Shown: positions 1-22,402, numbered from the stretch's first letter. The stretch: DNA of 64,000 nt from an uncultured Chloroflexia bacterium (GCA_963766735.1 CAVYBU010000006.1:88929-152928); one strand, 5' to 3'. Program-made: numbers and translations. The notes: a model not told the origin generated them from the sequence alone.

Positions 1-726
1 CTGGATGCGCGACAGGGTCGGCGTCCGCAGCTCGCCGCCGAACGTCTCGGGACCACCGAAGCCGGCGTCGTCCACGAGCACGATCAGGACGTTCGGGGCC
101 CCATCCGGCGCCTTGGGCCCGGGGATCATCGACCAGTCGCCGACGGACGTGTCCATCGTCCGGCCGACCACGCCCCCGAAGTTCCGGTCAGGGATCGGCA
201 GCACGGTCCGATCCTGGCTGAACTTGCCCATCGCCTCGGCGAGGGAATCCTTCAAGGCGGCCGTGCCCGACTTCTCCGTCTGGACAACGGAGCGCACGAG
301 CGCCCCGGCCAGGATCTGCTGGACGGCGAGGGCCTGGTCCTCCTCGAACATCGCAAGGATGGCGGCGGTGCCGGGCTTGAGCGCCTCGCCGATCTTGTCG
401 TGGAGGCCCGTCTCCATCTTGTGCTTCGCGAAGCGCCCGGCGATTCCGCCCGCCGCGGCCCCAACGACGGTGGCTGCGAGCAGCGGGGGAGCGGCAAGAC
501 CCACGAGGAAGCCGACCGAGCCGCCGTAGCCGAGCCCCTTGCGGCCGAGGTGGTCGCCGGTCTGCTGGACGATGACGTTGTCGTCCTTGTCGTGGCTGAC
601 GAGGATCGCGCCCTCGATGCTGACCTTCTTCGCCTTCACCGCGGCGACGAGGTCGTCGAATTCCTTCGTGGCGGTGTCGACGCTCGGGTACCCCGCAACC
701 AGGACGTCGGTCAACTCGTGAGCCAT
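1..726 (-). CDS. DUF1269-family membrane protein domain (about 165 aa) running in-frame, with no stop, into an arylsulfatase N-terminus; 3' end lies beyond the window start
   Basis: Reverse translation from the ATG at 726 gives MAHELTDVLVAGYPSVDTATKEFDD...GLGYGGSVGFLVGLAAPPLLAATVVGAAAGGIAGRF...ALKDSLAEAM, a DUF1269-like fold. It continues without a stop as GKFSQDRTVLPIPDRNFGGVVGRT...PNVLIVLVDDAGFGGPETFGG, the classic sulfatase N-terminus. This frame is absent from the ORF track. Confidence 0.65.
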   Translation of the reverse strand, partial: MAHELTDVLVAGYPSVDTATKEFDDLVAAVKAKKVSIEGAILVSHDKDDNVIVQQTGDHLGRKGLGYGGSVGFLVGLAAPPLLAATVVGAAAGGIAGRFAKHKMETGLHDKIGEALKPGTAAILAMFEEDQALAVQQILAGALVRSVVQTEKSGTAALKDSLAEAMGKFSQDRTVLPIPDRNFGGVVGRTMDTSVGDWSMIPGPKAPDGAPNVLIVLVDDAGFGGPETFGGELRTPTLSRIQ

Positions 727-932
727 GAGGTCGTCTCCCGTCAACGCTGTCCCGCCCAGCCCGCTGCCCAGGACGGGAGCTGATCATCATCGACAAGCCG
801 GGCAGGGCCCTCCTGCCAGGCGCCGCAACCAGTCCAGATTACATCCCTGATCCGGGGCATCGAACATCGAACCCCGCGGATGATGCGGCGACCTGGGAGC
901 GGGCCCCTGGCGCACCGGGACCGACTGATCGG

Positions 933-1634
933 CTACCGCCCCGGCCTGGATGCGCGGACCCGGTTCTGACCCAGGCGGATGAGCGGCAGCGCCAGCATCA
1001 GGGCGGTGGCCACCACGTAGAGGCCGACGGCGACGGGCGGAGCGACCAGGGCGCATGCGACCGCGATGATCCATATCCCGATCGAGATCCTTCGTTGGCG
1101 GGCCATCGCCGCCAGCTCCTCATCGGCGACGTCGTCGATCAGCAGCGTCCGTTCACGAGCAAGGTGGGCCATCAGGAAGGTCAGCAACAGCGATGCGACC
1201 AGCACGTTGATCCCGTAGATGAGCACCGCGACCTGGACATCGGGGCCGGCCAGGTGGCTCACCATCAGGCTGGTCGTGAACGGGAGCACGGCCACGAAGA
1301 GCAGGAACAGGAGGTTGAAGCTGAACGCGAGGGTGTCGCCGCGCTTCATGAGCCTCGTCATCCGGGTATGGGTGATCCAGTTGCCGCCGATGAAGGCGAA
1401 GCTGATGAGGTAGCCGAGGTACTCCGGCCACTGTTCGACCAGGGTCGGGAGCAATGGCTCGGGTCCGACCGGGACCGTCAGCTCCAGCACGAGCAGGGTG
1501 ATCGCGATCGCGAACACGCCGTCAGAGAAGGCGTTGAAGCGGTCCAGAGGCAGTTCGTCGGCCGGGCGGGGCGCTCCGGCGCCGGAGTCTCGATCAGACA
1601 CTGTCGCTCCTCCATCTCGCCGGCCTTCCAGCAA
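933..1634 (-). CDS. TMEM175-like / DUF1211 membrane protein (putative K+ channel family)
   Basis: The LDRFNAFSDGVFAIAITLLVLEL signature motif of DUF1211/TMEM175 is followed by multiple transmembrane helices. The true start may be internal. Confidence 0.75.
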   Translation of the reverse strand: MLEGRRDGGATVSDRDSGAGAPRPADELPLDRFNAFSDGVFAIAITLLVLELTVPVGPEPLLPTLVEQWPEYLGYLISFAFIGGNWITHTRMTRLMKRGDTLAFSFNLLFLLFVAVLPFTTSLMVSHLAGPDVQVAVLIYGINVLVASLLLTFLMAHLARERTLLIDDVADEELAAMARQRRISIGIWIIAVACALVAPPVAVGLYVVATALMLALPLIRLGQNRVRASRPGR

Positions 1635-1720
1635 CGAGGCGAGAACCCGGGCTGGGCGCCCGGGTTCTCGATCCTGTCAACCGGACCCGGGGGCCCAGCC
1701 GGCCAGTTGCTCCGTTGATC

Positions 1721-2692
1721 CTAGGCCTGGGCGTCCTCGGCTTCCTCGATCGCGACCTCCTCGGCGTCGCGCGACATGGAGACGACGTCCTCGGCCTCCT
1801 CGATCGCGACCTCTTCGACCTCGCGGGCGAGCGACACGACGTCCTCCGCCTCCTCGATCGCCGATTCCTCGACGTCCGCGGACAGCGCCACGACTGCCTC
1901 CGCCTCCTCGACGGCGGCCTCCTCGACCTCGATGGCCAGCGCCACGACCTCCGCGGCCTCCTCCATGGCGGCCTCTTCGATCAGCTCGGCAGCGAACAGC
2001 GTGTCGATGACGTCCTCGGCGGCGGCGTCCTCGATCGCCAGCGCCATTGCGACGACGTCGGCGGCCTCGGCGATGGCGGCCTCCTCGACGAGCTCCGCCA
2101 TGACCAGGGTCCGGGCGATGTCCATCGCGGCCATCACCTTGATGGCCTCGGCCGCCTCGATGGCCTCCTCGGCCTCCATCCTGACCCGCAGCTCCTCGCC
2201 GACGAGGGCCAGGGCGTCGGGCGAGATCATCGCCTGCATGAGCGAACGCCCCCCGGCCTCGCCGATCGCGTCGCGCAGGCTTGCCGCCCAGTGGTGCTCG
2301 ATCACGAGGATCGCGGCCGCCCCGCCGGCGGGAATGCTCTCGGCAAGCTCCTTCATGCGGTCCACGCCGAGGCCGGCGTCCCGCTCGGCCACGGCAAGCG
2401 CGCCCAGGATCTCGCCCTCGACCATGCCCTCGACGCCGCCCTCGTGCAGGCCGATGAGGCCGCCCGCGATCGCGCCCAGGCGCATCCGCTCGTTCTCGGA
2501 CAGGTCGGTCATGTGCATCGAGTTCTCGATGCTGCCGTGCCTGTCCTTCTGGACGAACAGGATGTCCACGATCCGGATCACGCCGCGCTTCCGTGCCCGG
2601 CGCAGCTCGGCCATGATCTTGCCGGTGGCCTCGAACTTGTCGAACCCGATCACGAACACCTGGATCGGGCCCGTCACGTGCTTCTCGCTCAT
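1721..2692 (-). CDS. DUF1269-like soluble protein with a C-terminal Glu/Ala-rich 18-aa tandem repeat array
   Basis: The N-terminus IQVFVIGFDKFEATGKIMAELRRARKRGVIRIVDILFVQKDRHG... resembles the DUF1269 / general-stress-protein fold. The C-terminus holds about 7 copies of EEVAIEEAEDVVSxxxxx. Confidence 0.7.
   Translation of the reverse strand: MSEKHVTGPIQVFVIGFDKFEATGKIMAELRRARKRGVIRIVDILFVQKDRHGSIENSMHMTDLSENERMRLGAIAGGLIGLHEGGVEGMVEGEILGALAVAERDAGLGVDRMKELAESIPAGGAAAILVIEHHWAASLRDAIGEAGGRSLMQAMISPDALALVGEELRVRMEAEEAIEAAEAIKVMAAMDIARTLVMAELVEEAAIAEAADVVAMALAIEDAAAEDVIDTLFAAELIEEAAMEEAAEVVALAIEVEEAAVEEAEAVVALSADVEESAIEEAEDVVSLAREVEEVAIEEAEDVVSMSRDAEEVAIEEAEDAQA
1740..2120 (-). repeat. 54-bp imperfect tandem repeats (about 7 copies), coding for acidic 18-aa units
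   Basis: The unit cctcctcgatcgc...gacgtcctcggc recurs on the DNA. The protein repeat is EE[AV]A[IVM]EEAE[DA]VV[AS].... Confidence 0.7.
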
Positions 2693-2823
2693 GTTGCCTG
2701 CTCTCCTGTGCTGACGATCGCGGGTGGTTGCCCCTGCGCGCGGCTCTCTCGGGGTCCGGATGATATCGAGCCCGGGCCGACGATCGACCCGGGCTCGATG
2801 ATTCGCGTGTTGCGGTGCCCGGA

Positions 2824-3450
2824 TCAGCCGGCGGCGGGTGCCCCACCCTCAGCGGCATCAGCGGCGGCCGCGGCGGCCTTGATCGCGTCCGCGGCTTCCT
2901 CGTCAACCGGGACCGCCTTGACCTCCTCGGCGTCCGGCATCTTGAGCCTGACGTCCTCGACGGCCGTTGCCGACACGAGGCACAGGATGCCCGACGTGCC
3001 GGGGGTGATGACGTCGGTCAGCTGCTTCTCGACCTCCACCCGGTGGTAGAGGTTGCGGGCCTTGCCCGCAGCCGCGCCGGCGAAGCCCAGCGCAACGGCA
3101 CCGCCGACGATCGTCGCCGGCAGGAAGATCCCGGCGACCACGCCGCCCACGATGCCCCACTTGAGGCCCTTGCGGGTGCTGTGCTCGGTCATCTTCTGGA
3201 TGTGGATCCGGCCGTCGGCGTCGGCCTTGGCGACGAGGACGCCGTCGATCTCGAGCGAGCCGTCGATCTCGGCCGACTGGAGGTCCCGGTAGACACCGAC
3301 GGCGGCGTTGGCGTCCGCGAAGCGGGCCACGATGAGGGCATGGTTGCCCTCGGCGGCGATGGCGGCCTCGGCGATCACGCCCTTGTCATCGGCCACCTGG
3401 GCAGCGACGACGACGACGTCCTCGGCCTGGGGGGTGGTCTCTTCGGTCAC
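2824..3450 (-). CDS. DUF1269-family membrane protein
   Basis: VLVAKADADGRIHIQKMTEHSTRKGLKWGIVGGVVAGIFLPATIVGGAVALGFAGAAAG and a KxxL acidic tail; typical DUF1269 architecture. Confidence 0.75.
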   Translation of the reverse strand: MTEETTPQAEDVVVVAAQVADDKGVIAEAAIAAEGNHALIVARFADANAAVGVYRDLQSAEIDGSLEIDGVLVAKADADGRIHIQKMTEHSTRKGLKWGIVGGVVAGIFLPATIVGGAVALGFAGAAAGKARNLYHRVEVEKQLTDVITPGTSGILCLVSATAVEDVRLKMPDAEEVKAVPVDEEAADAIKAAAAAADAAEGGAPAAG

Positions 3451-3644
3451 GTGGAACCTCCTGTGGGCTGGGCGCCGTCCCTGGGAGCCGCGGTGAGATG
3501 CGGCGCGATCGGGATGATGTCGGCGCGGTGGGTCCGTCCACGGTCGCGTGGCGGACGCGCGGTTGCTGCGCAGATCGATGGTACGCGGTTTCCGGAGAGA
3601 GGCGATTCCGTGGAGGGGAACCCGGGCCCGCTGCCACGCTCGGG

Positions 3645-4316
3645 TCAGGGTTCGGAGGCCGGCACCCCAGCGGCAGGTCCCGGCAGGTCTCGCTCCAGCG
3701 CCCGGGTGAGCCGGACGAGCGTGGCGGCAAGTGCCACGAACGCCACACCCGCCAGCCAGCCGGCGAGGACGTCAGTCGGCCAGTGGACCCCGAGCGCGAT
3801 CCTCGAGAGCCCGATGAGCACGGGGAGGATCACCGCGAGGATGAGCACTGCCCGGCGGACCGCGAGCGAGAGCCGGCTTCGCCAGGCGACGAGCGCCAGG
3901 ATCCCGTAGGTCACCGTGCTGTTGAGGGTATGGCCGGAGGGAAAGCTGTAGCCGGGCGCCGACACCAGGGGGTTCGCCGTCGGCCTGGGCCGGGCCACGA
4001 GCTCCTTCACGACCTCCGTGAACAGCGCCCCGGCGATGAGCACCAGAGCGACGATGATCGCAAGGTGGACACGCCGCGAGACCGCGGCGGCCAGAAAGAG
4101 CGCGATCCCGATCAGGACGAGGATCTCCGCGCCGAGGAACGTGCACGCCTCCCAGAACCCGACCGGGACGGGGAGGGACTGCAGGGCGGTCGCAAGCGGC
4201 TCGTCGAACGCAAGGCCGCCGCGACGGACGACCAGCATGCCAAGGACGAGGAAGGCGATCGCGCACGCGAGGCCCACCCAGGGCCAGGTGTCGCGGCGGG
4301 TTGGGCGCGGCGTCAT
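3645..4316 (-). CDS. PAP2-family phosphatase (phosphatidic acid phosphatase type 2 / undecaprenyl-PP phosphatase-like)
   Basis: Motifs KELVARPRP, PSGH and SRIALGVHWPTD within a polytopic membrane protein. Confidence 0.8.
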   Translation of the reverse strand: MTPRPTRRDTWPWVGLACAIAFLVLGMLVVRRGGLAFDEPLATALQSLPVPVGFWEACTFLGAEILVLIGIALFLAAAVSRRVHLAIIVALVLIAGALFTEVVKELVARPRPTANPLVSAPGYSFPSGHTLNSTVTYGILALVAWRSRLSLAVRRAVLILAVILPVLIGLSRIALGVHWPTDVLAGWLAGVAFVALAATLVRLTRALERDLPGPAAGVPASEP

Positions 4317-4400: not shown

Positions 4401-4664
4401 ATGGACCTCACATTCGTCGGCTGGATCGTCGTTGGCCTGATCGCAGGGTTGTTCTCCGGCGTCGTCGCCGGTGGCCGGACGCTCCGGGGCTGGATGCCGA
4501 GCCTCGTCATCGGCCTGGTGGCCGCGGTCATCACCGGCTGGCTGCTGGTGTCATTCGCCGGGGTGGACTCGATCACCAGCATCTGGGTCTCGGCGCTGTT
4601 CGCGTCGGTCGTCGCGGTCGTCCTCCGGCTGCTCATCAAGACGGTCTCGTTCAGCGGCGACTGA
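4401..4664 (+). CDS. GlsB/YeaQ/YmgE-family small membrane protein (transglycosylase-associated)
   Basis: 87 aa with three TM helices; WIVVGLIAGLFSG...VIGLVAAVITGWLL pattern. Confidence 0.7.
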   Translation: MDLTFVGWIVVGLIAGLFSGVVAGGRTLRGWMPSLVIGLVAAVITGWLLVSFAGVDSITSIWVSALFASVVAVVLRLLIKTVSFSGD

Positions 4665-4794: not shown

Positions 4795-6957
4795 GTGACG
4801 GCACCGGCGGTACGGACCCCCGCGGTCATCCCCGACTGGCTGGTCAACCTCGCGGCCCTCGGCTGGCGGATGATCGTCATCGCGGCGCTCATCGTCGTGC
4901 TGTGGCAGCTCAGCGGGCTCCTGTGGACGGTCTCCGCCTCCATCGCGATCGCCATCGTCATCGCGGCCGCTTTCGCGCCGTTCGTCCTGCGGCTGCGCGC
5001 CCGCGGTCGATCGCAGGCTGCGGCGGCGGGGATCGTGTGGGTGGTCGCGATCGCCGTCCTCACCGGCGCTGCGTTGCTGCTCTCGTTCGCCTTGCTGCCG
5101 TCCATCGGCGAGCTGGTGACCAGGATCTCGGCCGCCATCGCGGAGGTCCAGGCACGGGTCGTCGAGAACGGCGTCCCACCGGACGTCGCGGCGTCTGCTC
5201 GAGCGGCCATCGATGCCGCCCGCGAGGCGATCGGCGCGGCCGTGGGCGACATCGTCGCGGCGGCCGGAGGCGTCATCACCGTCCTGGTCCTCGCCTCCTT
5301 CCTCGTGTTCTTCTTCCTGAAGGACGGCGACAGGGCCTGGATCTGGGTCTTCCAGGCCGTCAGCGACCAGAAGCGGGAGCGAATCACCGAGGCCGGTGAG
5401 GACGCGCTGGCACGCGTCGGCGGCTACCTCCGCGGAACGACGATCCTGTCCGCGATCATCGCGCTCACGGACCTCGTGTTCATGTGGGTTCTGGGCGTGC
5501 CGCTCGCGGTGCCGCTGGCCGTCCTCGTCTTCTTCAGCGGCTACATCCCGTACTTCGGCGGCATCGTCACGACGATGCTCATCCTGCTGGTCGCGTACGC
5601 GACCCTCGGCCTGGGACCGGTCGTGGTCTTCATCCTGCTGATCGCCATCCGCAACGCGATCCTCGGCTACGGCATCCGCCCGGCCGTGTATGGCCGAACC
5701 GTGAGCATCCATCCCGCACTCGTCCTCATGGCGCTGCCCGCGGGGTTCGCGCTGGCCGGGGTCGTGGGCCTGTTCGCGGCAGTGCCCGTGACGGCCGTCC
5801 TGCTCGCAGTGGCGGCGGCGACCGTGGCGATCGTTGACCCCGGTCCGCGCCCCGAGCTCCCTTCCCTGGTGCCGGCCTGGCTCGACCGGGTCGCACAGTG
5901 GAGCTGGCGCCTGCTGGTGGGCCTGGGCCTGATCACGCTGATCGTGCTGGTGATCGTTGCGGTGCCGATGGTCGTGGTCCCCATCGTCATGGCCACGATC
6001 CTCGCGGCCACGCTGCACCCCCTGGTTCGCGTCCTCGTCCGGCGCGGCCGGGGACGCGGGCAGGCCGCCGCGATATCAGTGGGCGGGGGGATCCTCGCGG
6101 TCACCGCGGTCATGGGGATCGCCCTGATGTCGCTGGTGGGCCAGGCCGGGGCCATCGGGCGGGAGGCCTCTGGCGGCGCCGGGTCCGTGAGCGATGCGGC
6201 GGGCGGCACCCTCGAGATCCTCACAGCCGCGGTGGCCACCGGGGGGACCGACCTGGTGACGACCGCGGCCTCCATCGTGTCCGACGTGGGCGCGCTTGTC
6301 GTGGTCATCGTCCTGAGCGCCCTGCTGTCGTTCTACTTCCTCAAGGACGGCGGACACCTGTGGAGCCGGACCCTTGCGCGTGTCCGACCCGAGGCGGCAG
6401 GCGCGATCGACGAGGCCGGCAGCCGTGCGTTCGAGGTGCTGAGCGGGTACATGATCGGGACCGGCGCCATCTCGCTGGTGGGCGCGGCCAGCCAGCTGGT
6501 CATCATGCTGGTCCTGGGCATCCCGCTCGCGGTGCCGATCTTCGTCCTCTCGTTCTTCCTGTGCTTCATCCCCTACATCGGCGGCTTCATCTCGACCGGC
6601 ATCGCGCTGCTGGTGACCATCGCCGTCGGCGTCCCATCGGACATCGTGATCATGGTCATCTGGACCCTCGTGTTCAACATCGTCACCGGCAACGTCGTCT
6701 CGCCGCTCGTCTACGGCAAGACGGTCCACCTGCACCCCGCGGTCGTGCTGGTCGCGATCCCGGCCGGAGGAGCCGTCGCCGGGATTGCCGGCATGTTCCT
6801 GGTCGTGCCCCTGATCGGCGTTGTCGCCGTGACCTGGCGCACAGTCCTCGCTGTCATCGGGATGCCGAGGATCCCGCGCGGGGCGGCGGTGCCGGCGTAC
6901 GCCGCGGCCGCCCCTGACCTCGTTGGTCCCGAGGCGGAGCCGGCCGAGGGCGGCTGA
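4795..6957 (+). CDS. Tandem-duplicated AI-2E (UPF0118 / PerM) family transporter, two complete domains in one polypeptide
   Basis: The FLVFFFLKDGDRAW and LSFYFLKDGGHLW motifs each sit in one roughly 350-aa half. Both halves carry the ...YGxxxxxHP... signature. GGAGGGA RBS upstream of the GTG start. Confidence 0.8.
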   Translation: MTAPAVRTPAVIPDWLVNLAALGWRMIVIAALIVVLWQLSGLLWTVSASIAIAIVIAAAFAPFVLRLRARGRSQAAAAGIVWVVAIAVLTGAALLLSFALLPSIGELVTRISAAIAEVQARVVENGVPPDVAASARAAIDAAREAIGAAVGDIVAAAGGVITVLVLASFLVFFFLKDGDRAWIWVFQAVSDQKRERITEAGEDALARVGGYLRGTTILSAIIALTDLVFMWVLGVPLAVPLAVLVFFSGYIPYFGGIVTTMLILLVAYATLGLGPVVVFILLIAIRNAILGYGIRPAVYGRTVSIHPALVLMALPAGFALAGVVGLFAAVPVTAVLLAVAAATVAIVDPGPRPELPSLVPAWLDRVAQWSWRLLVGLGLITLIVLVIVAVPMVVVPIVMATILAATLHPLVRVLVRRGRGRGQAAAISVGGGILAVTAVMGIALMSLVGQAGAIGREASGGAGSVSDAAGGTLEILTAAVATGGTDLVTTAASIVSDVGALVVVIVLSALLSFYFLKDGGHLWSRTLARVRPEAAGAIDEAGSRAFEVLSGYMIGTGAISLVGAASQLVIMLVLGIPLAVPIFVLSFFLCFIPYIGGFISTGIALLVTIAVGVPSDIVIMVIWTLVFNIVTGNVVSPLVYGKTVHLHPAVVLVAIPAGGAVAGIAGMFLVVPLIGVVAVTWRTVLAVIGMPRIPRGAAVPAYAAAAPDLVGPEAEPAEGG

Positions 6958-7176
6958 GCAGAGACCGAACCCGGGACGGCGCCTGGCCGTGGACAGAGGA
7001 ACATCCCTGTCTGCGCCCGGCGCTCAGCCCGCACGTCGGCCGGGATCACGCTCGCTCACATCGGCTGAGTTGCCTGCAGGCTCGCATCGGAGACGCCGAC
7101 TGGCGATACTGCTCGGGCACACGGGATGATTTCCGGGAGGAAGCCGTCTCGTCCACAGGTCAGGAGGAATGGGCAC

Positions 7177-9939
7177 ATGACAGAGGTGACCGGAGCAACC
7201 GCTGCCGCCGGCGCGACGGCGTGGCACGCCCTGAGCACGGAGGACGCTCTGCAGCAGCAGGGCGTCGACGCCGACCAGGGATTGTCCTCAGCCGAGGTCA
7301 CCGCACGCAGGACGAAGTTCGGTGCCAACCGGTTTGCGGAACAGGCCCCCGAGCCGCGCCTGCGCGCCTTCCTGCGCCAGTACGCCGACGCGATGCAGAT
7401 CGTCCTGCTGGTCGCCGGCGTGCTGAGCATCTACCCGGTGGGCCAGGTCTCCACCGGGGTGATGCTGATCCTGCTGACGGTCCTCAACGCCTACCTCGGC
7501 CTGAGCCAGGAGGGCAAGGCTGCGGCGGCCGTGGCGGCGCTCCAGAAGATGATGGTCGTCAAGGCGCGGGTGCGCCGGGACGGCGAGCTGGTGGAGGTGC
7601 CGGCCGAGGAGCTCGTCCCGGGAGACATCGTGGCCTTCGAGGCCGGCGATCTCGTCACCGCGGACGGACGGATCTTCGCGGCGGCAACCCTGGAGATCGA
7701 CGAAGCGGCCCTGACCGGCGAAAGCCTGCCCGTCGCCAAGGACGTGAACCCCGTCGCCGCCGATGCGCCGCTGGGCGACCGGCTCGGCATGGCGTTCATG
7801 AACACGAACGTGACCCGTGGCTCGGGGCGCTTCGTCGTGACTGCCACCGGCATGAACACCGAGGTGGGCCACATCTCCGGGATGCTGCAGGTCGACAAGG
7901 GACAGGAGACGCCCCTGACGCGGCAGATCAACGCCTTGACCAACCAGCTCCTGATCATCGCCGGCCTCGCCCTCCTTGCCTCGATCGCGATCGGCTACTT
8001 CCGCTACGGCCAGCCATTCGATGTCCTGTTCGTGACGGCCATCGCCTTCGCCGTGTCGGCCATTCCGACGGGCCTGCCTGCCGTCATCACCACCATCCTC
8101 TCGTACGGCACGCAGACGCTCGCGAAGGCCGGCGCCATCGTGAAGCAGTTGCGATCCGTGGAGACCCTTGGATCCACTTCGGCGATCAACTCCGACAAGA
8201 CCGGCACGCTCACCCTCAACCAGATGACGGCCGTCGAGATGGCGATCCCGGGCCGCCGGTTCACCGTCTCCGGCACCGGCTACGGGATCGAGGGCTCGAT
8301 CGCGCGCGTCGCGGGTGATGCGGACGTCCCGCTCGACCCGTTCCTCCTCCCGTGCGTCCTGGCCTCCGACGCCGTCGTCAAGGATGGCGCCTTGATCGGC
8401 GACCCGACCGAGGGCGCGCTCGTTGTCCTGGCCGAGAAGGGCGGGGTCAGCGCCATCGCCACGCGAGAGGCCTACCCGCGGGTCGCAACCCTGCCGTTCG
8501 ATGCGGCCTACAAGATGATGGCCACCTTCCACCGCATGAAGGACGAGGCGGGCAAGGATGTCGTCCGCTGCTTCGTCAAGGGTGCCCCCGACCAGCTGCT
8601 GGCCCGCGGCACGTTCGTGGTCACGCCGGACCTGTCCGGGGTCCGTCCCGTCGACGACGACATGCGGGCGAGGATCCTCGCGGAGAACGAGCGCCTCGGG
8701 GCCAAGGGACTGCGCGTGATGGCAACCGGGCGCAGGGACTTCGATCCCGCCAGCTTTGATCCCGGTGCCGATCTCCTGCCGCTGCTCGACGGGATGACCC
8801 TGCTCGCCCTCGTCGGGATCGTGGACCCGCCGCGACCGGCGGCCAGGAAATCGATCGCCGAGGCGCACAGCGCCGGGATCCAGGTCCGGATGATCACCGG
8901 CGATCATGCCGTCACGGCCCAGGCGATCGCACAGGACCTGGGCATCACCGGCCGCGCCATCACCGGCGCAGAGTTCCGGGCGATGAGCGACGACCAGGCC
9001 GTCCGGGAGATCGACGGCATCGGCGTGATAGCGCGAGTGACGCCGGAGGACAAGGTCCACCTGGTCGACATCCTTCGCAAGAAGGGCCACATCGTGGCGA
9101 TGACGGGCGACGGCGTGAACGACGCGCCGGCGCTCAAGAAGGCCGACATCGGCGTGGCCATGGGCATCACGGGTACCGAGGTCTCGAAGGAGGCCGCGGT
9201 GATGATCCTCACCGATGACGACTTCGCGACGATCGTGAAGGCAGTCAAGCTGGGTCGCGGGCTCTACGACAACCTCAAGAAGTACATCCGCTTCCAGGTC
9301 GGGCTCCTGCTCGGCTACATCGTCACGTTCCTGGGCTCCAGCATCCTGAACGTGCTCGGCGGCGTCCCGTTCGTGCCCATCCAGACGCTGTTCATGAACT
9401 TCACCGTCCAGGTCTTCCAGGCGGTCGGCCTCGGCTACGGCAAGGCCGCGGACGGCCTCATGGAGCGCAGGCCGCGCCCGTCCAGCGAGCCGCTCCTCAG
9501 CGGCCCACTCCTCATCTGGCTGGCCGTCGCCGGCCTCGTGATGGGTGGCGGCACGCTGGCCGTCATCGCCTGGGCCTCGAACGTCTACGACGAGACGGTC
9601 GCGCGCACCATGGGGATGATCGCCTTCTCGATCTCGAACGTCGCGTTCTCGTTCGCGACGAAGGACGAGCGGCGGTCGGTCTTCAGCCTCGACATCATGG
9701 GCGACCGGCCGTTCCTCTACGCGACGGCGGCCTCGATCGCGACGATCGTGCTGATGACCGAGTTCGGGTTCTTCAACCGGCTCCTCGACACGACCAACCT
9801 CAACCTCGACCAGTGGGTCGTCTGCATCCTCGTCGGGTTGCTGATCATCCCCGTCTCGGAGATCCGGAAGATCGTCATCAAGAAGCCCCTCGACGAGGTT
9901 CCGTCCGAGGCTCCCATGGCAGCCGCGTTGGCCGCCTGA
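7177..9939 (+). CDS. Cation-transporting P-type ATPase, type II (PMCA/SERCA-like, Ca2+/Mg2+ type)
   Basis: DKTGTLT, TGES and [20 protein letters not shown] motifs; AGGAGG RBS 9 nt upstream of the ATG at 7177 (an in-frame ATG at 7126 is an alternative start). Confidence 0.9.
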   Translation: MTEVTGATAAAGATAWHALSTEDALQQQGVDADQGLSSAEVTARRTKFGANRFAEQAPEPRLRAFLRQYADAMQIVLLVAGVLSIYPVGQVSTGVMLILLTVLNAYLGLSQEGKAAAAVAALQKMMVVKARVRRDGELVEVPAEELVPGDIVAFEAGDLVTADGRIFAAATLEIDEAALTGESLPVAKDVNPVAADAPLGDRLGMAFMNTNVTRGSGRFVVTATGMNTEVGHISGMLQVDKGQETPLTRQINALTNQLLIIAGLALLASIAIGYFRYGQPFDVLFVTAIAFAVSAIPTGLPAVITTILSYGTQTLAKAGAIVKQLRSVETLGSTSAINSDKTGTLTLNQMTAVEMAIPGRRFTVSGTGYGIEGSIARVAGDADVPLDPFLLPCVLASDAVVKDGALIGDPTEGALVVLAEKGGVSAIATREAYPRVATLPFDAAYKMMATFHRMKDEAGKDVVRCFVKGAPDQLLARGTFVVTPDLSGVRPVDDDMRARILAENERLGAKGLRVMATGRRDFDPASFDPGADLLPLLDGMTLLALVGIVDPPRPAARKSIAEAHSAGIQVRMITGDHAVTAQAIAQDLGITGRAITGAEFRAMSDDQAVREIDGIGVIARVTPEDKVHLVDILRKKGHIVAMTGDGVNDAPALKKADIGVAMGITGTEVSKEAAVMILTDDDFATIVKAVKLGRGLYDNLKKYIRFQVGLLLGYIVTFLGSSILNVLGGVPFVPIQTLFMNFTVQVFQAVGLGYGKAADGLMERRPRPSSEPLLSGPLLIWLAVAGLVMGGGTLAVIAWASNVYDETVARTMGMIAFSISNVAFSFATKDERRSVFSLDIMGDRPFLYATAASIATIVLMTEFGFFNRLLDTTNLNLDQWVVCILVGLLIIPVSEIRKIVIKKPLDEVPSEAPMAAALAA

Positions 9940-9942
9940 CGC

Positions 9943-9998
9943 GACGGGCTGGTCCCGTCCACCCCCGACGCGCGGGGCCGGCCTTCGGTTCGGCCCGC
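9943..9998 (+). terminator. Two GC-rich hairpins immediately after the ATPase stop codon (putative intrinsic terminator, no T-tract)
   Basis: gacggg-ctggt-cccgtc and gcggggccgg-ccttcggtt-cggcccgc stem-loops. Confidence 0.25.
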
Positions 9999-10147
9999 AC
10001 GTCCGTTGCCGGGACGGCAAGCGGGGCGACCGGCCCTGCGGGATGATATGCACCCACGGGACGCATCGTCGTCTCAGCGCCGGACCGCGTGCTCCGTAGC
10101 GTCCATCCACAGTCGGCCCCGGTCCGACATCACCCAAAGGAGAATCC

Positions 10148-12089: not shown

Positions 12090-12872
12090 ATGACGATCGA
12101 GGGTGCGCCCGCGCAACCCGATCCATCGGACGGCACCGCGTGGCCTAGGACCGGGACCCCCGCCGTCCTCGGCGAGGCCGCGCACCAGATGCGCGCGCCC
12201 TGGGCGGCCGGCGTCGCGGGCCTCCTGTTCGCGATCCTGTTCACCGCCGCACTCGTCCTGCTCCGCTCGGAGGCGTTGACCACTGCAACCGATGCGCAGC
12301 TGGCCGTGATGTTCGCCACTGGTGGTCACCTGCCGATCGTGATCGGCGGCCTGTACCTGGCGCCGTTCTCGGGGATCATGTTCCTGTGGTTCGTCGCCGT
12401 GGTGCGGGACCAGATCGGCGAGCGCGAGGACCGCTTCTTCGCGACGGTGTTCTTCGGCAGCGGTCTCCTGTTCGTCGCCCTCGTGTTCGTGGCGACGGCG
12501 ATCGCTAGCTCCGCGGTCGTCGGCTACCAGTACCTGGACCAGCCGGCACCGTCGGCGGACACCGTGGAGCTGCTCCGCGCGCTCTCATACACGGTGCTGT
12601 TCGCGTTCGCGACCCGGGCGGCCGCCGTCTTCCTGATCTCCATGGGCACGATCGGCCTGCGCAGCCGGACCTTCCCCAGATGGTTCGCATGGACCGCCTA
12701 CGCGCTGGGGCTCGTCCTGCTGGTCGCCGTGACGCTCTGGGACTGGATCATCCTCGTGCTCCCGGCATGGGTCGCGATCGTGAGCCTGTTCATCATGCGC
12801 CGCGAGCGGGCGCGCCGGCCCAGCCGCGGGCCTGGCGGCGTCAGCGAGCCCGGACCCGACCGGGTCCCCTGA
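12090..12872 (+). CDS. Hypothetical polytopic membrane protein
   Basis: GGAGGGGAG RBS, six or more predicted TM helices, coding-like GC3. Confidence 0.55.
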   Translation: MTIEGAPAQPDPSDGTAWPRTGTPAVLGEAAHQMRAPWAAGVAGLLFAILFTAALVLLRSEALTTATDAQLAVMFATGGHLPIVIGGLYLAPFSGIMFLWFVAVVRDQIGEREDRFFATVFFGSGLLFVALVFVATAIASSAVVGYQYLDQPAPSADTVELLRALSYTVLFAFATRAAAVFLISMGTIGLRSRTFPRWFAWTAYALGLVLLVAVTLWDWIILVLPAWVAIVSLFIMRRERARRPSRGPGGVSEPGPDRVP

Positions 12873-12877
12873 GGCTG

Positions 12878-15475
12878 ATGTCGGCCGCGGTCGGGCTGCG
12901 CAATCTCCTGGGCCGGGCCAGGCTCGCGATCGAGGGGCCGGAGGGGCCGGCAATCGCCTGGACGCTGCGCGGCTACCTCCCGAGCCAGCTCTCCGGCGAC
13001 GTCATCTCGGGCCTGACCGTCGCGGCCCTGATCGTCCCCCTGAGCATCGGCTACGCCGGCGTCGCCGGGCTGCCGCCGGAGGTGGGCCTGTACGCGTCGA
13101 TGGTGCCGCTTGCGGCGTATGCGATCTTCGGGTCGGCTCGGCAGGTGATCGTCGGTCCCGATGCGTCCACGGCGGCGCTGATCGCCGCGACCATTGCGCC
13201 GCTGGCGGTTGTCAGCGACGACCGCGTCCGGCTCGCCGGCGTGCTGGCCCTGATGGTTGCCGCGGTCTTCGTCGTCATGCGGCTCGGCCGGATGGGCTTC
13301 CTGGCCGACTTCCTCTCCCGCCCGATCCTGGTCGGCTACATGACGGGCGTGGGCATCACCGTCGCGGCCGGGCAGGTTGCGAAGATCGCAGGCGGATCGG
13401 CGATCGCGGACGCGATCGCGGTCCTGTCGGGTATCGACTGGAGCGCCGCCGACCCGAGGGCCGTCGCCGACGCGCTCCTGATCGCTGTCCGTGGCTCTGG
13501 CGCGGACCTCACCTCATTGGTCATCGGCATCGCCGTGGTGGTCGCCATGCTGCTCGGCCGTCGGTACCTGCCACGGGTCCCGATGGCGCTGGTGGCCATG
13601 ATCGTGGCAATGGTGGCGAGCGCGGCGTTCGACCTCCAGTCCAGGGGAGTCCAGGTGCTGGGTCCGGTGTCGCCCGGGCTGCCAGGGATCGGCATTCCGA
13701 CGGCGTCCGCGACGGAGCTCGTCGGGCTGCTGCCCGGAGCGCTCGGCCTCGCGATCCTGAGCTTCGCGGACACGGCGGCCACCGGACGAACGTTTGCGGC
13801 CCGCCGCCACGAGCGCACCGACGCGAACCGGGAGCTGGTGGCGCTGGCCGCGGCCGACGCCGGAGGGGCCCTCACCGGCGGCTACGCGATCAGCTCCAGC
13901 CCGTCACGGACGGCAGGGGCGGTGAATGCCGGGTCGAGCTCCCAGCTCACCGGGCTGATCGCGATGGCCTCGGTCGCCGTGGTCCTGGTGCTGCTGACCC
14001 GGCCGCTGTCCTACCTCCCGATACCCGCCCTGGGTGGCGTCATCTTCGTCGCCGTCCTCGGCCTCATCGACGTCCGCGGGATCGTCCGGATCCTGAACCT
14101 CAAGTCCAGCGAGGGCCTGATCGCGATCATCACGATGACCGGGGTGATCCTGTACGGAACGCTCATCGGCGTTGGTATCGCCGTGTTGCTGGCAGCCCTG
14201 AACATCGTGCGCCGGGCGGCGTGGCCGCAGATCGTCGAACAGGGCCGTCTCGACGACGGAACCTGGCGGGATCTCACCCGACAACCCGAGGCACGCCGCG
14301 TTCCCGGGGTGATCGTGATCCGGTTCACGGGTCCCCTGTTCTTTGCGAACGCCACGGCCCTCCAGGCGCTGACCCGCGAGCTCATGGCCGGTCGGCTCGA
14401 CACGAGGGCGGTGGTCCTCGACCTTGCCGCGACCGCCGACATCGACGTCACCGCCGGCGGCGCCATCAGGGAGCTGGCGGACGACCTGGCTCGCGCCGGC
14501 CGGCAGCTGACGGTCGCGGGGCCGCTGGGCCCCGTGCGCGACGAGCTGCGGGCATACGGGCTGGCCGACCTGATGGAGGCCACCGGAGGAACACGCGGCA
14601 GCATCGACGAAGCGATCGCCGGTCTCGGCCTGGACCCGTCGCGCGCGGTGGAGCCCGGCGAGAGGGGGAGCGGTGCGGCGTCCGCAGCGGACACGACGCC
14701 GGAACCCGGGGAGCCGGTGGCCGGCGAGCCCGAGGAGCCGGCGGCCGAGGAACCCCGGGCCGGCGAGCCCCGGCCCGGCGAAGGCCTCGTCGTGCGGGTC
14801 CTCGCCATCGCGCTGGGGATCGTGGTCGCCGCGACCCTGCTGGGGACGGCGCTCAACGCCTGGCGTGGTGAGGCGTCCGGTGTGTCTGTCGTCCCCAACC
14901 TGGTCGGGCTGTCCCTCGATCGTGCCTCGACGGCCGCAGGGGATGCGGGCTTCACGCTGGCGCCCCCGGTCTACGTCCAGCGGAACGATCGACCGGAGAA
15001 CACGGTCGTTGCCCAGGACCCGCCGGCCGGGACCGAGTTGGAGCGGGGATCCGTGATCCGCCCGGTGGTCAGCACCGCACGTGGGCTGGTGCGCGTGCCG
15101 GATGTCGTTGGCCAGGCCGAGTCCCAGGCCATCGCAACCCTGACCAGTGCGGGCCTCATCGTCCGCAGATCGGACAGCGTGTTCGATGAGGCGCTGCCCG
15201 CTGGTGCCGTCGTCACCACGAGCCCGGCGGCGGGCGTCTCGGTGGCGAAGGGCACGGTCGTCGACTACGTCGTGTCCGAAGGCGAGGAGCCCACACCGGC
15301 GCCCTCGGCAACGCCGGCTCCATCCCCGACGCCCTCGGCAACGCCGTCGCCGGCAACGACGGGCACGCCGACGGTTTCGCCATCACCGCCGGACGGGACG
15401 CCACCAGTTGAGGCGCCGACCGGGACGCCCCCGAATGCCACGCCTCCAGCCGGGACGGCCAGTCCCACCTTCTGA
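12878..15475 (+). CDS. SulP-family anion transporter with STAS domain, then an extra TM helix, two PASTA domains and a Pro/Thr/Ser-rich tail
   Basis: SulP core (GDVISGLTVAALIVPLSIGYA...), STAS (VIVIRFTGPLFFANATAL...), the TM helix LVVRVLAIALGIVVAATLLGTAL, and two PASTA units (VPNLVGLSLDRAS..., VPDVVGQAESQAIATLTSAGL...). Confidence 0.85.
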   Translation: MSAAVGLRNLLGRARLAIEGPEGPAIAWTLRGYLPSQLSGDVISGLTVAALIVPLSIGYAGVAGLPPEVGLYASMVPLAAYAIFGSARQVIVGPDASTAALIAATIAPLAVVSDDRVRLAGVLALMVAAVFVVMRLGRMGFLADFLSRPILVGYMTGVGITVAAGQVAKIAGGSAIADAIAVLSGIDWSAADPRAVADALLIAVRGSGADLTSLVIGIAVVVAMLLGRRYLPRVPMALVAMIVAMVASAAFDLQSRGVQVLGPVSPGLPGIGIPTASATELVGLLPGALGLAILSFADTAATGRTFAARRHERTDANRELVALAAADAGGALTGGYAISSSPSRTAGAVNAGSSSQLTGLIAMASVAVVLVLLTRPLSYLPIPALGGVIFVAVLGLIDVRGIVRILNLKSSEGLIAIITMTGVILYGTLIGVGIAVLLAALNIVRRAAWPQIVEQGRLDDGTWRDLTRQPEARRVPGVIVIRFTGPLFFANATALQALTRELMAGRLDTRAVVLDLAATADIDVTAGGAIRELADDLARAGRQLTVAGPLGPVRDELRAYGLADLMEATGGTRGSIDEAIAGLGLDPSRAVEPGERGSGAASAADTTPEPGEPVAGEPEEPAAEEPRAGEPRPGEGLVVRVLAIALGIVVAATLLGTALNAWRGEASGVSVVPNLVGLSLDRASTAAGDAGFTLAPPVYVQRNDRPENTVVAQDPPAGTELERGSVIRPVVSTARGLVRVPDVVGQAESQAIATLTSAGLIVRRSDSVFDEALPAGAVVTTSPAAGVSVAKGTVVDYVVSEGEEPTPAPSATPAPSPTPSATPSPATTGTPTVSPSPPDGTPPVEAPTGTPPNATPPAGTASPTF

Positions 15476-15498: not shown

Positions 15499-17730
15499 AT
15501 GATCCCTCAACCGAACCCCGGGCATGACCCGGGAGGCAATCAGGAGACACCCGTGCGCCGGTTCCTGTTCGAAGCCCTGGTCGATGCGCTCATCCTCATC
15601 GGGCTCGCCTTCCTCCTGTCGCTGATTCACGTCCCGCAGCCGTTCCCGTTCGGGAGCGGACGCGCCCCGATCATGGTCGGCCAGGGCGCCGGGTTCATCG
15701 GATTCTTCGTGTTCGCCGTCGTCCTTGGCGTCGTGAACCGCGGAGTGCGGCCGGTGATCGTCGCGTTCACCGGCCGCCTGGTGCTCGCGACCGCCGGCAT
15801 GTTCATGGTCGTGATCACGTGGCTCGTGTTCTCGATCACGTCGTTCTTCGCCCCCGAACTGGTCGTGGTCGCGGCGCCGACGATTCTCTGGACGCTCGTT
15901 CTCGCGGCCCTCTACGGGTTCGTCTCGATCGTGCTGGACGCGGTGCTGGGGCTCAGCCGGCCATCGCTCGACGTCGAAGGCCGGGGGAAGTTCATCTGGC
16001 GCTTCCTGGACGGGCTCCCCACGCCTCGCCGCAACGCCATCATCGAGAACCTGCGGTTCCAGCAGGTGTACGACACCCTCTACCGCTACGGGCTCGACAT
16101 CTTCCTCGGCGGCACGTCGATCGGCCGGATCCGCGCCTGGATCCAGCGGGTCATCTTCCGCGAGGAGGAGCCGTTCGTCGGGCTGTCCACGCCCGCCCGG
16201 ATCCGGATGATGCTCCAGTCGCTCGGGCCGACGTACGTGAAGATCGGCCAGATGGTGGCGAGCCGCGGCGAGGCATTGCCCCCGGAGTGGCTCACGGAGC
16301 TGCAGATGCTGCAGAGCGACGTGGCGCCGTTCCCGTACGAGCAGGCGCGCGAGGTCATCACCAAGGAGCTGGGCAAGCCGCCCGAGGAGCTGTTCGCGAC
16401 GTTCGAGACGGAACCGTTCGCGGCGGCCTCCACCGCCCAGGTCCACCGCGCGACGCTCCACGACGGGACCCTCGTCGCGGTCAAGGTCCAGCGGCCCAAC
16501 ATCGTCGCCAAGACCAAGGCCGACCTGGGCGTCATGCAGGAGCTCGCCCGGCAGCTTGCCAGGCGCGTCGAGATTGCCCGCCAGCTCGACGTGGAGGGAA
16601 TCCTGCGCGAGTTCGCCAGCGGCGTGATCAGCGAGATGGACTATCGCAACGAGGCCTACAACGCGCGTCGGATCTCCGAGGCGATGGTCAAGTTCGAGCG
16701 GATGCACGTGCCCGTGGTCTATGGCCGCCTGTCGGGCGAGCGCGTCATGACGGCCGAGTTCGTGAAGGGGTTCAAGATCAGCGATGTCGCCGCGCTCGAC
16801 GCCGCCGGCATCGACCGCAAGGAGATCGGGGTGGTCTTCGTCAGGGCCCTGATCAAGCAGGTCCTGGTCGACGGCTTCTTCCACGGCGATCCGCATCCCG
16901 GCAACATCTTCGTCGAGCCCGACACCGGGCGGATCACGTTCCTCGATTTCGGGCTCGTCGGCCGGCTCACCCAGAACCAGCGCATGGACCTCCTGGACAT
17001 GATCAACGGGCTCCAGCTGAAGGACTCGTCGGCGGTGGCCAGGGCGCTCCAGGGCCTGAGCACGGTCGGACCCGACTTCAACGAGCGCGGGTTCACGGAG
17101 GCGGTCGACCGGATCGTCCGCGAGTACCTCGTGTATGGCGAGGGCGACGGCATCGCGGACGCGATGTCCGCGGTCATGGGCGCCGTATACGGGCATGGCC
17201 TGCGGCTGGACAACGACCTCACGCTCGCGATGAAGGCCGTCATCCAGGCACAGGAGACCGCCTCGATCCTCGACCCGTCGATCGACATCGGCAAGGCGGC
17301 CATGGAAGAGGCGCGGGACGCGCTGGTGGCGGGGCTGACACTCGACAACATCGAGAAGACCGCGACCGCCACGGGCCTCCGTGTCGGCAAGGAGCTGGTC
17401 CGCCGCCTGCCCACGCTGGAATCGGCCGCCTTCATGTGGATCGACCAGTTCGGCAAGGGCAAGATCACGGTGGCGATCGACACCAGCGAGCTGGACACCC
17501 AGTTCCGGCAGCTGGACGACACAGGACGGCGGCTCACGATGGGGCTGCTCACCGTCGGCCAGCTGATCGGCTCGGCGATCCTCGCCGTCGTCCTGCTCCA
17601 GCCGGCGATTGCAGATACGGTGGGGCCGCTGGCCTCGATCGCGGTGTTCGCCTTCTTCGGGGTCCTGGCCTACAGCCTGTTCATCACCTACCGCGTCGGC
17701 CGCCGGCCGGAAGACGACAGCAGGCGCTGA
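15499..17730 (+). CDS. ABC1/UbiB-family atypical protein kinase with an N-terminal 4-TM holin-like membrane domain and C-terminal TM helices
   Basis: ABC1 kinase core (YVKIGQMVASRGEALP, AAASTAQVHRATL, FFHGDPHPGNIF, LDFG) and flanking hydrophobic domains. Confidence 0.85.
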   Translation: MIPQPNPGHDPGGNQETPVRRFLFEALVDALILIGLAFLLSLIHVPQPFPFGSGRAPIMVGQGAGFIGFFVFAVVLGVVNRGVRPVIVAFTGRLVLATAGMFMVVITWLVFSITSFFAPELVVVAAPTILWTLVLAALYGFVSIVLDAVLGLSRPSLDVEGRGKFIWRFLDGLPTPRRNAIIENLRFQQVYDTLYRYGLDIFLGGTSIGRIRAWIQRVIFREEEPFVGLSTPARIRMMLQSLGPTYVKIGQMVASRGEALPPEWLTELQMLQSDVAPFPYEQAREVITKELGKPPEELFATFETEPFAAASTAQVHRATLHDGTLVAVKVQRPNIVAKTKADLGVMQELARQLARRVEIARQLDVEGILREFASGVISEMDYRNEAYNARRISEAMVKFERMHVPVVYGRLSGERVMTAEFVKGFKISDVAALDAAGIDRKEIGVVFVRALIKQVLVDGFFHGDPHPGNIFVEPDTGRITFLDFGLVGRLTQNQRMDLLDMINGLQLKDSSAVARALQGLSTVGPDFNERGFTEAVDRIVREYLVYGEGDGIADAMSAVMGAVYGHGLRLDNDLTLAMKAVIQAQETASILDPSIDIGKAAMEEARDALVAGLTLDNIEKTATATGLRVGKELVRRLPTLESAAFMWIDQFGKGKITVAIDTSELDTQFRQLDDTGRRLTMGLLTVGQLIGSAILAVVLLQPAIADTVGPLASIAVFAFFGVLAYSLFITYRVGRRPEDDSRR

Positions 17731-20361: not shown

Positions 20362-20832
20362 TCAGGGCCGTGTGGGAATGCGGTAGAGGAAGACCGCCAC
20401 GATCAGTCCGGTCACGCCGAGCGCCCCGCGCAGCAGGAGGCCGTCCACCAGAAGGATCGACACGCCGAACGACAGCGCGACCACGGCCAGCGCCCGGACG
20501 CGCACTCCGGGCGGCAGCGAGCGCGACGTGCGCCACTCCGTGATGATCGGCCCGAGGGAACGCTGGCCGACGAGCCAGCCATACAGGCGATCCGACGCCC
20601 GCGCATAGCAGGCTGCGGCCAGCAGCAGGAACGGCGTGGTCGGCAGGACAGGAAGGACGATCCCCAGCACGCCGATGACCAGGGACACGGTCCCGACCGT
20701 CACGAGGATCACGCGCAGGGGAAGCGACGCGCGGTCTGGCGGCCCGAGATCGACCGGTGAGGTGCCGGGATCGCCGGGGCACGGCGTCGGGCTCGGCGTC
20801 GGATCGGGAGTCTGGGGGTCCGACAGGTGCAT
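20362..20832 (-). CDS. DUF454 / YbaN-family inner-membrane protein
   Basis: RVILVTVGTVSLVIGVLGIVLPVLPTTPFLLLAAACYARASDRLYGWL motif. The upstream part of the 509-aa ORF is rejected. Confidence 0.7.
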   Translation of the reverse strand: MHLSDPQTPDPTPSPTPCPGDPGTSPVDLGPPDRASLPLRVILVTVGTVSLVIGVLGIVLPVLPTTPFLLLAAACYARASDRLYGWLVGQRSLGPIITEWRTSRSLPPGVRVRALAVVALSFGVSILLVDGLLLRGALGVTGLIVAVFLYRIPTRP

Positions 20833-21129
20833 CGCATAAGGATGCCCTGCCGTGGCGCCGGCGTCGCCCCACCCGAACCGGCGAGCACAGTGATCGCGAC
20901 CCGGGGCGACCCGCCAGGTCGGGCTGGCGTTCGCGTTTCGGGACCCCGGACCGGTCAGGCCGACCGGGCCCTCCGGTCGAGATCGATGGCTCTCCTCGCG
21001 TCCCGCCGCGGCTGAGATGCTTGATCCGGCCCAGCCGGCCTCCTGAACGCGGCCGCTAGCGCCCGCGCCCGGACGGACCAGCCCAGGTCGAGCATGGTTC
21101 CGGACGCGCACGGAGAGGAGTAGACGGCC

Positions 21130-22243: not shown

Positions 22244-22402
22244 ATGGCCTCCCCGGCCGCCGTCCGGATCGGCGCCGACGACCCCGGCGTCGGCGACCCG
22301 TCCGGCAGCACTCGCTCCAGCATCACGATCCTGCGCGTGGCGATCGTCGTCCTGGTCACGTCCGTCGTCCTGCTCGCTGAAATCCGGAGGTCCAGCCGGT
22401 GA
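22244..22402 (+). CDS. Candidate 52-aa single-TM peptide, translationally coupled (GTGA overlap) to the downstream P-type ATPase
   Basis: GGGAGGG RBS 7 nt upstream of the ATG at 22244; [52 protein letters not shown]; high GC3; its stop overlaps the ATPase GTG start; not in the ORF track. Confidence 0.35.
   Translation: MASPAAVRIGADDPGVGDPSGSTRSSITILRVAIVVLVTSVVLLAEIRRSSR

Follow-up and report, generated by a model that had tools for sequence, protein, structure and literature searches.

A conserved pair of DUF1269-type genes, one with an acidic repeat tail, in a variable neighbourhood of ion-transport genes in Chloroflexia DNA

We analysed a 64,000-nt stretch of DNA from an uncultured Chloroflexia bacterium (GCA_963766735.1, CAVYBU010000006.1:88929-152928), referred to as the window, in which positions 1-4316 hold a run of five genes on the minus strand. 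We named these PAP2, DUF1269a, REP, TMEM175 and DUF1269-sulfatase. An earlier reading of the sequence, the original prediction, had taken the five as one membrane-stress or ion-homeostasis module. Judged by gene order in related loci, the conserved unit is the DUF1269a→REP pair, to which most relatives add a third DUF1269 gene downstream, and around this pair the gene content is variable, with many ion channels and pumps. We favour, tentatively and without being convinced of it, an accessory role for the pair in ion homeostasis, close to the membrane, where it would bind cations or sense ionic strength. The features of the run are as follows.

3645..4316, minus strand: PAP2; Pfam PF01569, 78.7 bits (threshold 27.2)
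2824..3450, minus strand: DUF1269a, 208 aa; Pfam DUF1269, 27.7 bits (gathering threshold, GA, 26.9), residues 98-191
1721..2692, minus strand: REP, 323 aa; Pfam DUF1269, 24.8 bits, slightly below the GA of 26.9
1732..1980, minus strand: 54-bp tandem repeat array encoding the best-preserved REP tail repeats; Tandem Repeats Finder, period 54, 4.6 copies, 77% matches
933..1634, minus strand: TMEM175; Pfam PF06736, 87.6 bits (GA 25)
1..726, minus strand: DUF1269-sulfatase, first 242 residues; DUF1269, 42.6 bits (threshold 26.9), residues 68-151

The list of open reading frames (ORFs) and their translations place the five genes exactly where they had been predicted. The gene call is based on the GC content at third codon positions (GC3), which is 0.87-0.96 in all five ORFs and in an 87-aa ORF at 4401-4664, in a region of ∼0.70 GC. 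Because of these GC3 values we regard all six as coding and not as the shadow ORFs that are common in this DNA. The calls of PAP2, DUF1269, TMEM175 and DUF1269-sulfatase hold in Pfam, the sulfatase by way of its orthologues. That all three DUF1269 ORFs are of this type is also borne out: two reach the GA, and for REP the assignment comes from a profile-profile comparison, in which a profile of 69 REP homologues matched the DUF1269a/fusion-type profile with a probability of 95.1% (hhalign, E 3.2e-8, 135 columns). Thus, REP is a true relative of the other two despite its sub-threshold Pfam score, and the DUF1269 assignment fails for none of the three. The majority of the 348 REP homologues have a precomputed PF06897.18 match. 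The DUF1269 genes of the window are distant paralogues, as a tblastn search with one does not retrieve the others.

A genome scan with one genome per species yielded 59 loci encoding REP relatives, 54 of which have a close REP. DUF1269a lies immediately 5′ of REP on the same strand in 27 of the 47 loci with enough flank, and a second DUF1269a-like gene (∼53% identical) lies immediately 3′ of REP in 40 of 52 loci. The order DUF1269a-REP-DUF1269 is also present in locus L060, and in L062, the nearest relative of the window, DUF1269a-REP is followed by a DUF1269-sulfatase gene. In 21/54 loci TMEM175 lies no more than 10 kb from REP, and in 7 it is adjacent. PAP2 (by tblastn) and the DUF1269-sulfatase fusion were each found near REP in one of the 54 scan loci and, in addition, in L062. 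The complete five-gene arrangement was seen in none of the 62 related loci. The idea of five genes forming one module is not supported by this comparison, in which only DUF1269a-REP and the downstream DUF1269 gene are kept in the same order across related genomes. By the same measure, PAP2 and the fusion gene lie outside the conserved core, as neighbours specific to the lineage.

The loci are labelled mainly as Chloroflexia: 50 of the 59 come from “uncultured Chloroflexia” metagenome-assembled genomes (MAGs) and others from Chloroflexota, Caldilineae and Anaerolineae, with few actinobacterial labels (Actinomycetes, Acidimicrobiales, Acidimicrobiaceae). An actinobacterial host is doubtful on account of these labels. 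The actinobacterial lineage assumed in the original prediction is probably wrong, and the host probably belongs to the Chloroflexota. The source genomes are soil MAGs, several of which hold two or three copies of the locus.

Ion-transport genes recur around REP in changing combinations. By raw count, 45 of the 59 loci include one or more of the five families TMEM175, P-type ATPase, Na+/H+ exchanger, AI-2E and SulP. A P2-type ATPase homologue is near REP in 15/54 loci and an AI-2E transporter in 9/54. Adjacency of the type REP→TMEM175 or DUF1269→TMEM175 occurs in other genomes (L001, L032, L033, L041, L043, L048), so the TMEM175 association is recurrent but not constant. When all genes called in the related loci were clustered without supervision, further neighbours emerged: a MalT-like LuxR regulator (35 loci), DUF2252 and a small PLDc_N-SHOCT membrane protein (18 loci each), MFS (14), PPK2 (12; as a rule immediately 5′ of the ATPase gene), Na+/H+ exchanger (11), a membrane-anchored phosphodiesterase (9), DUF1622 (8), SulP (7) and CHAD (5). 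ClC and SulP genes are present in L061. The MalT-like regulator, PPK2, DUF2252, SHOCT, Na+/H+ exchanger and CHAD are absent across the whole 64-kb window. With TMEM175 within 10 kb in 21/54 loci and an ion-transport family in 45/59, the ion-homeostasis theme of the original prediction is reasonable.

Two further observations concern these neighbours. In L039, from a more distant member of the Chloroflexota, a two-transmembrane K+ channel with a TVGFGD filter is encoded two genes downstream of the REP homologue (12042-12401, plus strand), which echoes the TMEM175 association with another channel family. PPK2 lies directly upstream of a P2-type ATPase in at least 10 loci (L003, L013, L025, L028, L033, L043, L048 and others). 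Together with the presence of CHAD in five loci, this gene order suggests that cation pumping is connected with polyphosphate. Such a link is not claimable for the present locus, because PPK2 and CHAD are absent from the window.

L062, the nearest relative, was found through a DUF1269a homologue 94-96% identical to that of the window. It is collinear with the window at ∼90-95% DNA identity. One strand carries genes for an ABC1 kinase, SulP-STAS-PASTA, a radical SAM protein, a 113-aa protein, AI-2E and an 87-aa protein, and the divergent strand carries PAP2 (81% identical to that of the window), DUF1269a, REP (L062 10751-11614) and DUF1269-sulfatase in the same order as in the window. Thus, the neighbourhood is not confined to one genome: L062 keeps four of the five genes in identical order, and DUF1269a-REP is present in dozens of species-level genomes. 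Two segments of the window have no counterpart in L062. These are ∼6953-10123 (3.2 kb, holding a P2-type ATPase gene; L062 6470-6492) and ∼866-1673 (∼0.8 kb, holding TMEM175; L062 11633-11641), the latter with CCGG at both edges. TMEM175 and the Ca-ATPase-like pump are each a clean single-gene indel relative to L062. L062 thus lacks the putative K+ channel of the predicted module, while the other four genes are syntenic.

All three DUF1269 ORFs share the core of the DUF1269 family (Pfam PF06897, COG4803 “uncharacterized membrane protein”, which overlaps DUF6325, PF19850), consisting of beta-alpha-beta-beta, a glycine-zipper helical hairpin and beta-alpha-beta. DUF1269a has an acidic, Ala-rich N-terminus followed by a CutA1/PII-like core, and hydropathy analysis gives a single hydrophobic stretch at residues 96-128. 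In translation this stretch is a glycine-rich glycine zipper with a Pro at its centre and basic residues flanking it on both sides, from which we infer a hairpin with both ends in the cytoplasm. In the AlphaFold model the beta-alpha-beta core has predicted local distance difference test (pLDDT) values of 80-90, and the hairpin is poorly modelled. In the single description published so far, DUF1269 is a ferredoxin fold resembling CutA1/NikR with a long glycine zipper, and tandem DUF1269 genes have been described in Microcystis too (bioRxiv 10.1101/2024.07.07.602159); the model of DUF1269a agrees with that description. The predicted core fold is accordingly CutA1/PII-like (ferredoxin-like) with a glycine-zipper hairpin of ∼30 residues inserted. 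The likeness does not extend to sequence: no similarity to CutA1/PII proteins (GlnK, SbtB, CPII) was found, and the ORFs match neither a CutA1 or P-II Pfam family nor any PDB sequence. Moreover, DUF1269 carries the long glycine-zipper hairpin as its insert instead of a T-loop, and the DUF1269 pair adjoins transporters of many families rather than one fixed partner.

REP combines an N-domain of the DUF1269/DUF6325 type (residues 1-165), which has a polar glycine-zipper hairpin, with an acidic tail. Its AlphaFold 2 model has the same beta-alpha-beta-beta/hairpin/beta-alpha-beta layout as that of DUF1269a. In contrast to the DUF1269 family in general, the hairpin of REP has Glu in place of hydrophobic residues and lacks the central Pro. 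An EHHWA motif, invariant in alignments of the 69 REP homologues, is REP-specific, and REP also carries a 158-residue poly-acidic tail with 18-mer repeats. The computed net charge of REP is -50, and its hydropathy profile contains no hydrophobic or transmembrane segment.

The acidic repeat tail, which had been noticed in the original prediction, is real. It spans residues 166-323, carries a net charge of -45 and has a period of 18 residues. There are ∼8.5 repeats of 18 residues, composed of A, E, V, I and D, and each reads roughly (V/I)EEAAIEEAEDVVxLAxE; the model predicts them to be helical. The tail matched no family in Pfam and nothing in PDB. Between relatives the number of repeats in the tail (window 1721-2197) shifts in exact 18-aa units, by -2 in L062, -1 in P0009 and +1 in P0006. 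Such unit-wise copy change is typical for a fast-evolving tandem repeat. An exhaustive search of 1.84 billion cluster representatives returned 1,764 relatives of the N-domain, mostly 160-190 aa long and tailless; those tested match DUF6325 and/or DUF1269, several of them sub-threshold. Among these 1,764, the strongly acidic 18-mer tail is mainly confined to the close clade of REP.

The DUF1269-sulfatase gene runs off the end of the window with ∼32 residues of its sulfatase domain inside, before the C-x-P-x-R motif. Because the window ends within this domain, we read the full architecture from orthologues. The 968-aa orthologue of L062 contains DUF1269 and Sulfatase and shares 96% identity with the 242 residues available here, and that of L030 (68% identical, 967 aa) matches Pfam DUF1269, Sulfatase (220.9 bits) and SGSH_C and contains the formylglycine motif CSPTR. 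The orthologues thus carry the complete Sulfatase domain and C-x-P-x-R motif of Cys-type arylsulfatases (PF00884), from which the fusion differs by an added N-terminal DUF1269 domain of ∼170 residues. As in DUF1269a, there is one hydrophobic segment by hydropathy. PF06897 and PF00884 are combined in many database proteins, none of which has a functional description.

PAP2 is predicted to be a PAP2-family lipid phosphatase. Its translation has the three family motifs intact, KxxxxxxRP as KELVARPRP, PSGH as FPSGHT and SRxxxxxHxxxD as SRIALGVHWPTD.

For TMEM175 the best PDB match is the bacterial channel CmTMEM175 (5vre, E 5.7e-29). Its first transmembrane helix, RFNAFSDGVFAIAITLLVLE, aligns with that of 5vre, the part FSDGVFAIAITLLVLE of this pore-lining helix being identical, and the RxxxFSD signature is present. 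The product is therefore predicted to be a TMEM175-family channel, and its K+ or H+ conductance is likewise a prediction. The start is likely the GTG at 1601, giving 222 aa, rather than the TTG at 1634, since a GGAGGAG Shine-Dalgarno sequence precedes the GTG and the TTG abuts a hairpin. Like CmTMEM175 it has a single six-helix repeat of ∼220 aa. The protein itself is ordinary; what is new is its context, a gene-sized indel beside DUF1269 genes.

The spacers between the five genes, from PAP2 to the fusion, measure 194, 131, 86 (119 with the GTG 1601 start) and 206 bp. Two of them contain strong hairpins:

2765..2799, minus strand: hairpin with a 16-bp stem in the DUF1269a-REP spacer, after the DUF1269a stop; RNA fold z-score -3.06
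1640..1670, minus strand: hairpin with a 13-bp stem directly after the REP stop; z-score -3.66, with 0/200 shuffles folding as well

Both are GC-rich and lack a U-tract. Most related loci (L002-L053) have another, conserved hairpin, GTCCGGCG..CGCCGGAC, in the DUF1269a-REP spacer, and in at least one locus (L009) both of its arms change together such that pairing is preserved. The spacer hairpins could be terminators without a U-tract or intercistronic stabilisers; co-transcription is neither proven nor excluded by them. A search of the whole window with Rfam at gathering thresholds found a tRNA alone and no riboswitch, so a riboswitch does not explain the cluster. A promoter/terminator consensus scan found no consensus promoter, but such a scan is uninformative in this 70% GC DNA.

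Our favoured reading of the DUF1269a-REP pair as an accessory to ion homeostasis would work as follows. In DUF1269a and DUF1269-sulfatase, the hydrophobic hairpin would anchor the protein on the cytoplasmic side of the membrane, leaving its two ends in the cytoplasm, and the DUF1269 cores may oligomerise in the way CutA and PII proteins do. REP would join or dock on this assembly. Its poly-anionic tail could then act by bulk charge, either as a high-capacity, low-affinity binder of K+, Mg2+ or Ca2+ or as a sensor of ionic strength, and would support whichever channels and pumps are encoded nearby. A function that depends on a bulk property of the tail, and not on a precise structure, fits the variable repeat number. 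Divalent cations are a reasonable guess, because the neighbouring pump is most similar to a Listeria Ca2+-ATPase. By analogy only, REP recalls the acidic, high-capacity cation buffers of the calsequestrin type, as it is likewise very negative and adjoins a gene for a SERCA/LMCA1-like pump. There is no homology, however: the tail of REP is a helical tandem repeat, whereas calsequestrin is built of thioredoxin-like domains, and REP, which lacks a signal peptide, presumably stays in the cytoplasm. Any binding of cations by REP is putative.

Several points weigh against this reading. The excess of ion-transport genes around REP is plausible, but comes from raw counts. Some recurrent neighbours have no obvious ion role (the MalT-like regulator, DUF2252, PPK2, CHAD and the phosphodiesterase), and the nearby transporters are of many unrelated types, so that no specific partner can be named. 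Distant REP homologues occur without DUF1269a in L039, L040 and L056-L058. The strong hairpins and gaps of 86-206 bp speak against tight co-translation. Mean pLDDT is moderate, 67 and 58 for the two models, and the hairpins are of low confidence. Finally, the descriptive part of the reading is much firmer than the mechanistic part, every functional step of which we infer.

The alternative that survives best, although we consider it unlikely, is that there is no module: the region is rich in membrane-protein genes, the five happen to lie side by side, each is expressed and acts by itself, and they look related only through the shared DUF1269 domain. Much of the evidence on the full run agrees with this: the complete arrangement occurs in 0/62 loci, PAP2 and the sulfatase fusion each accompany REP in 1/54, the comparison with L062 shows TMEM175 and the ATPase as indels, and the three DUF1269 genes are too diverged to detect each other by tblastn. 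The spacers of 86-206 bp, the strong hairpins that follow the stops of DUF1269a and REP, and the lack of a promoter or riboswitch signal, point the same way. Against independence stand the recurrence of DUF1269a-REP in 27/47 loci and of the downstream DUF1269 gene in 40/52, across species-level genomes and often in multiple copies, and the order PAP2, DUF1269a, REP, fusion being retained in L062. TMEM175 within 10 kb in 21/54 loci also seems to be far above expectation for a few-copy gene.

We find it improbable that the locus is a stress-protection set for desiccation or dormancy, in which the REP tail would act as a hydrophilin or late embryogenesis abundant (LEA)-like amphipathic charged helix shielding membranes or proteins, and the DUF1269 proteins and a YmgE/GlsB-like small protein would serve as general membrane-stress proteins. 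The tail is indeed hydrophilic, repetitive, copy-variable and predicted to be helical, but it consists of E/A/V/I with hardly any K, T or G, and has no Pfam match. Classical LEA repeats are 11-mers, in contrast to the 18-residue period of REP. The source genomes being soil MAGs, and the divergent conservation of a small, weakly YeaQ/YmgE-like membrane protein, would suit such a role, although the YmgE/GlsB assignment is weak. In Streptomyces development, a DUF1269 gene shares a regulon with WhiD (PMC8914203), which also favours a protective function.

Remodelling of lipid head groups or nutrient scavenging at the inner leaflet, with DUF1269 tethering the sulfatase beside PAP2 and SulP, appears very improbable to us. 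It draws on the widespread DUF1269-sulfatase fusion with its intact CSPTR, on the intact catalytic motifs of PAP2, on the SulP genes that flank the cluster in both L062 and the window, and on the phosphodiesterase and PPK2 that recur nearby in related loci. Yet PAP2 and the sulfatase are rare beside the conserved pair (1/54 each), REP and its acidic tail are left unexplained, and the membrane side of the sulfatase domain is a presumption.

Still less do we believe that the locus serves intracellular granules of mineral or polyphosphate, with REP as an acidic protein that forms their matrix or controls nucleation. The inclusions, of Ca/Mg carbonate or polyphosphate, would be fed by the Ca-ATPase-like pump and a SulP of the bicarbonate-capable kind. 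In Microcystis, DUF1269 genes and a DUF454 gene lie near ccyA, the marker of intracellular amorphous calcium carbonate (iACC), and near a Ca2+/H+ exchanger gene (cax), and the glycine zipper of DUF1269 resembles that of calcyanin (bioRxiv 10.1101/2024.07.07.602159). The window holds DUF454, SulP and two P2-ATPases, the REP tail is extremely acidic, and in related loci PPK2 is directly upstream of the ATPase (at least 10) and CHAD occurs (5). However, neither calcyanin nor a CoBaHMA domain was detected in the window, from which PPK2 and CHAD are absent too; the Microcystis link is one of gene proximity only, and inclusions are not known from these uncultured organisms.

By analogy, one could go further and see in REP-type proteins an unrecognised class of prokaryotic membrane-proximal poly-anionic cation stores or nucleators, comparable in bacteria to calsequestrin or to the acidic matrix proteins of biomineralisation, and held at the membrane by DUF1269 glycine-zipper partners. 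Together with Ca-ATPase-like pumps, TMEM175/K+ channels and SulP, REP would then build or control intracellular Ca/Mg reserves, as carbonate or polyphosphate, in soil Chloroflexota. We regard this combined proposal as a long shot. A defence-system reading was dropped, as PADLOC gave no match for any of the six proteins of the region.

The remaining genes of interest in the window are listed below.

4401..4664, plus strand, divergent from the run: 87-aa protein with three hydrophobic segments; weak family matches
4795..6957, plus strand: AI-2E transporter of double length, 720 aa; PF01594, 267.9 bits in two stretches
7126..9939, plus strand: P2-type cation ATPase (Pfam); PDB match 6zhf (4.5e-146), most similar to the Listeria Ca2+-ATPase LMCA1
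12680..15475, plus strand: SulP-STAS with two C-terminal PASTA domains
15499..17730, plus strand: ABC1 atypical kinase fused to an N-terminal Phage_holin_4_2 (DUF360) membrane domain
20362..21891, minus strand: ORF with a DUF454 (YbaN-like) domain near 20362-20710, ∼16 kb from the DUF1269 genes
22399..25083, plus strand: second P2-type cation ATPase, 894 aa, 37% identical to the first

The gene at 4401 had been taken for a YmgE/GlsB-type stress protein. It does encode a small, divergent membrane protein, but the family call is weak: no PF04226 match was found even at E ≤ 5, and NCBIfam PRK10457 (E 1.1e-4, 22.7 bits, cutoff 129) and Pfam DUF5518 (20.5 against a threshold of 27) both stay below their limits. 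The gene is kept at the same relative position, divergent from the DUF1269 genes, in L062 (91%, 8804-9064) and L061 (82%, 8381-8641), and L062 has a second copy at 19211-19471, ∼9 kb downstream. The AI-2E protein is made of two tandem AI-2E domains, as is the 737-aa form of L062. L062 (963 aa) also retains the unusual combination of SulP-STAS with PASTA. The Phage_holin_4_2 (DUF360) domain seen here on the ABC1 kinase is fused to the phosphodiesterase in nine related loci.

Each of the five genes falls into a known Pfam family, and databases already hold many proteins with the DUF1269-sulfatase architecture. In the searchable literature we found no description of the REP architecture, of the conserved DUF1269a-REP-DUF1269 arrangement, or of the recurrent but fluid association of DUF1269a-REP with TMEM175 and other ion transporters. 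DUF1269 is widespread, and the same literature holds no experimental test of its function. The locus offers a concrete entry point to this family, with a conserved gene set, a contrast between hydrophobic and polar hairpins and a fast-evolving acidic repeat, and in its surroundings genes for ion channels and pumps are present or absent one at a time, as indels. Should our favoured reading be wrong, what is left is a run of membrane-related genes with correct annotations. Should the pair indeed bind cations or sense them at the membrane, bacterial ion homeostasis would have a further, accessory level, and the bacterial TMEM175 channels would gain a testable genomic partner.

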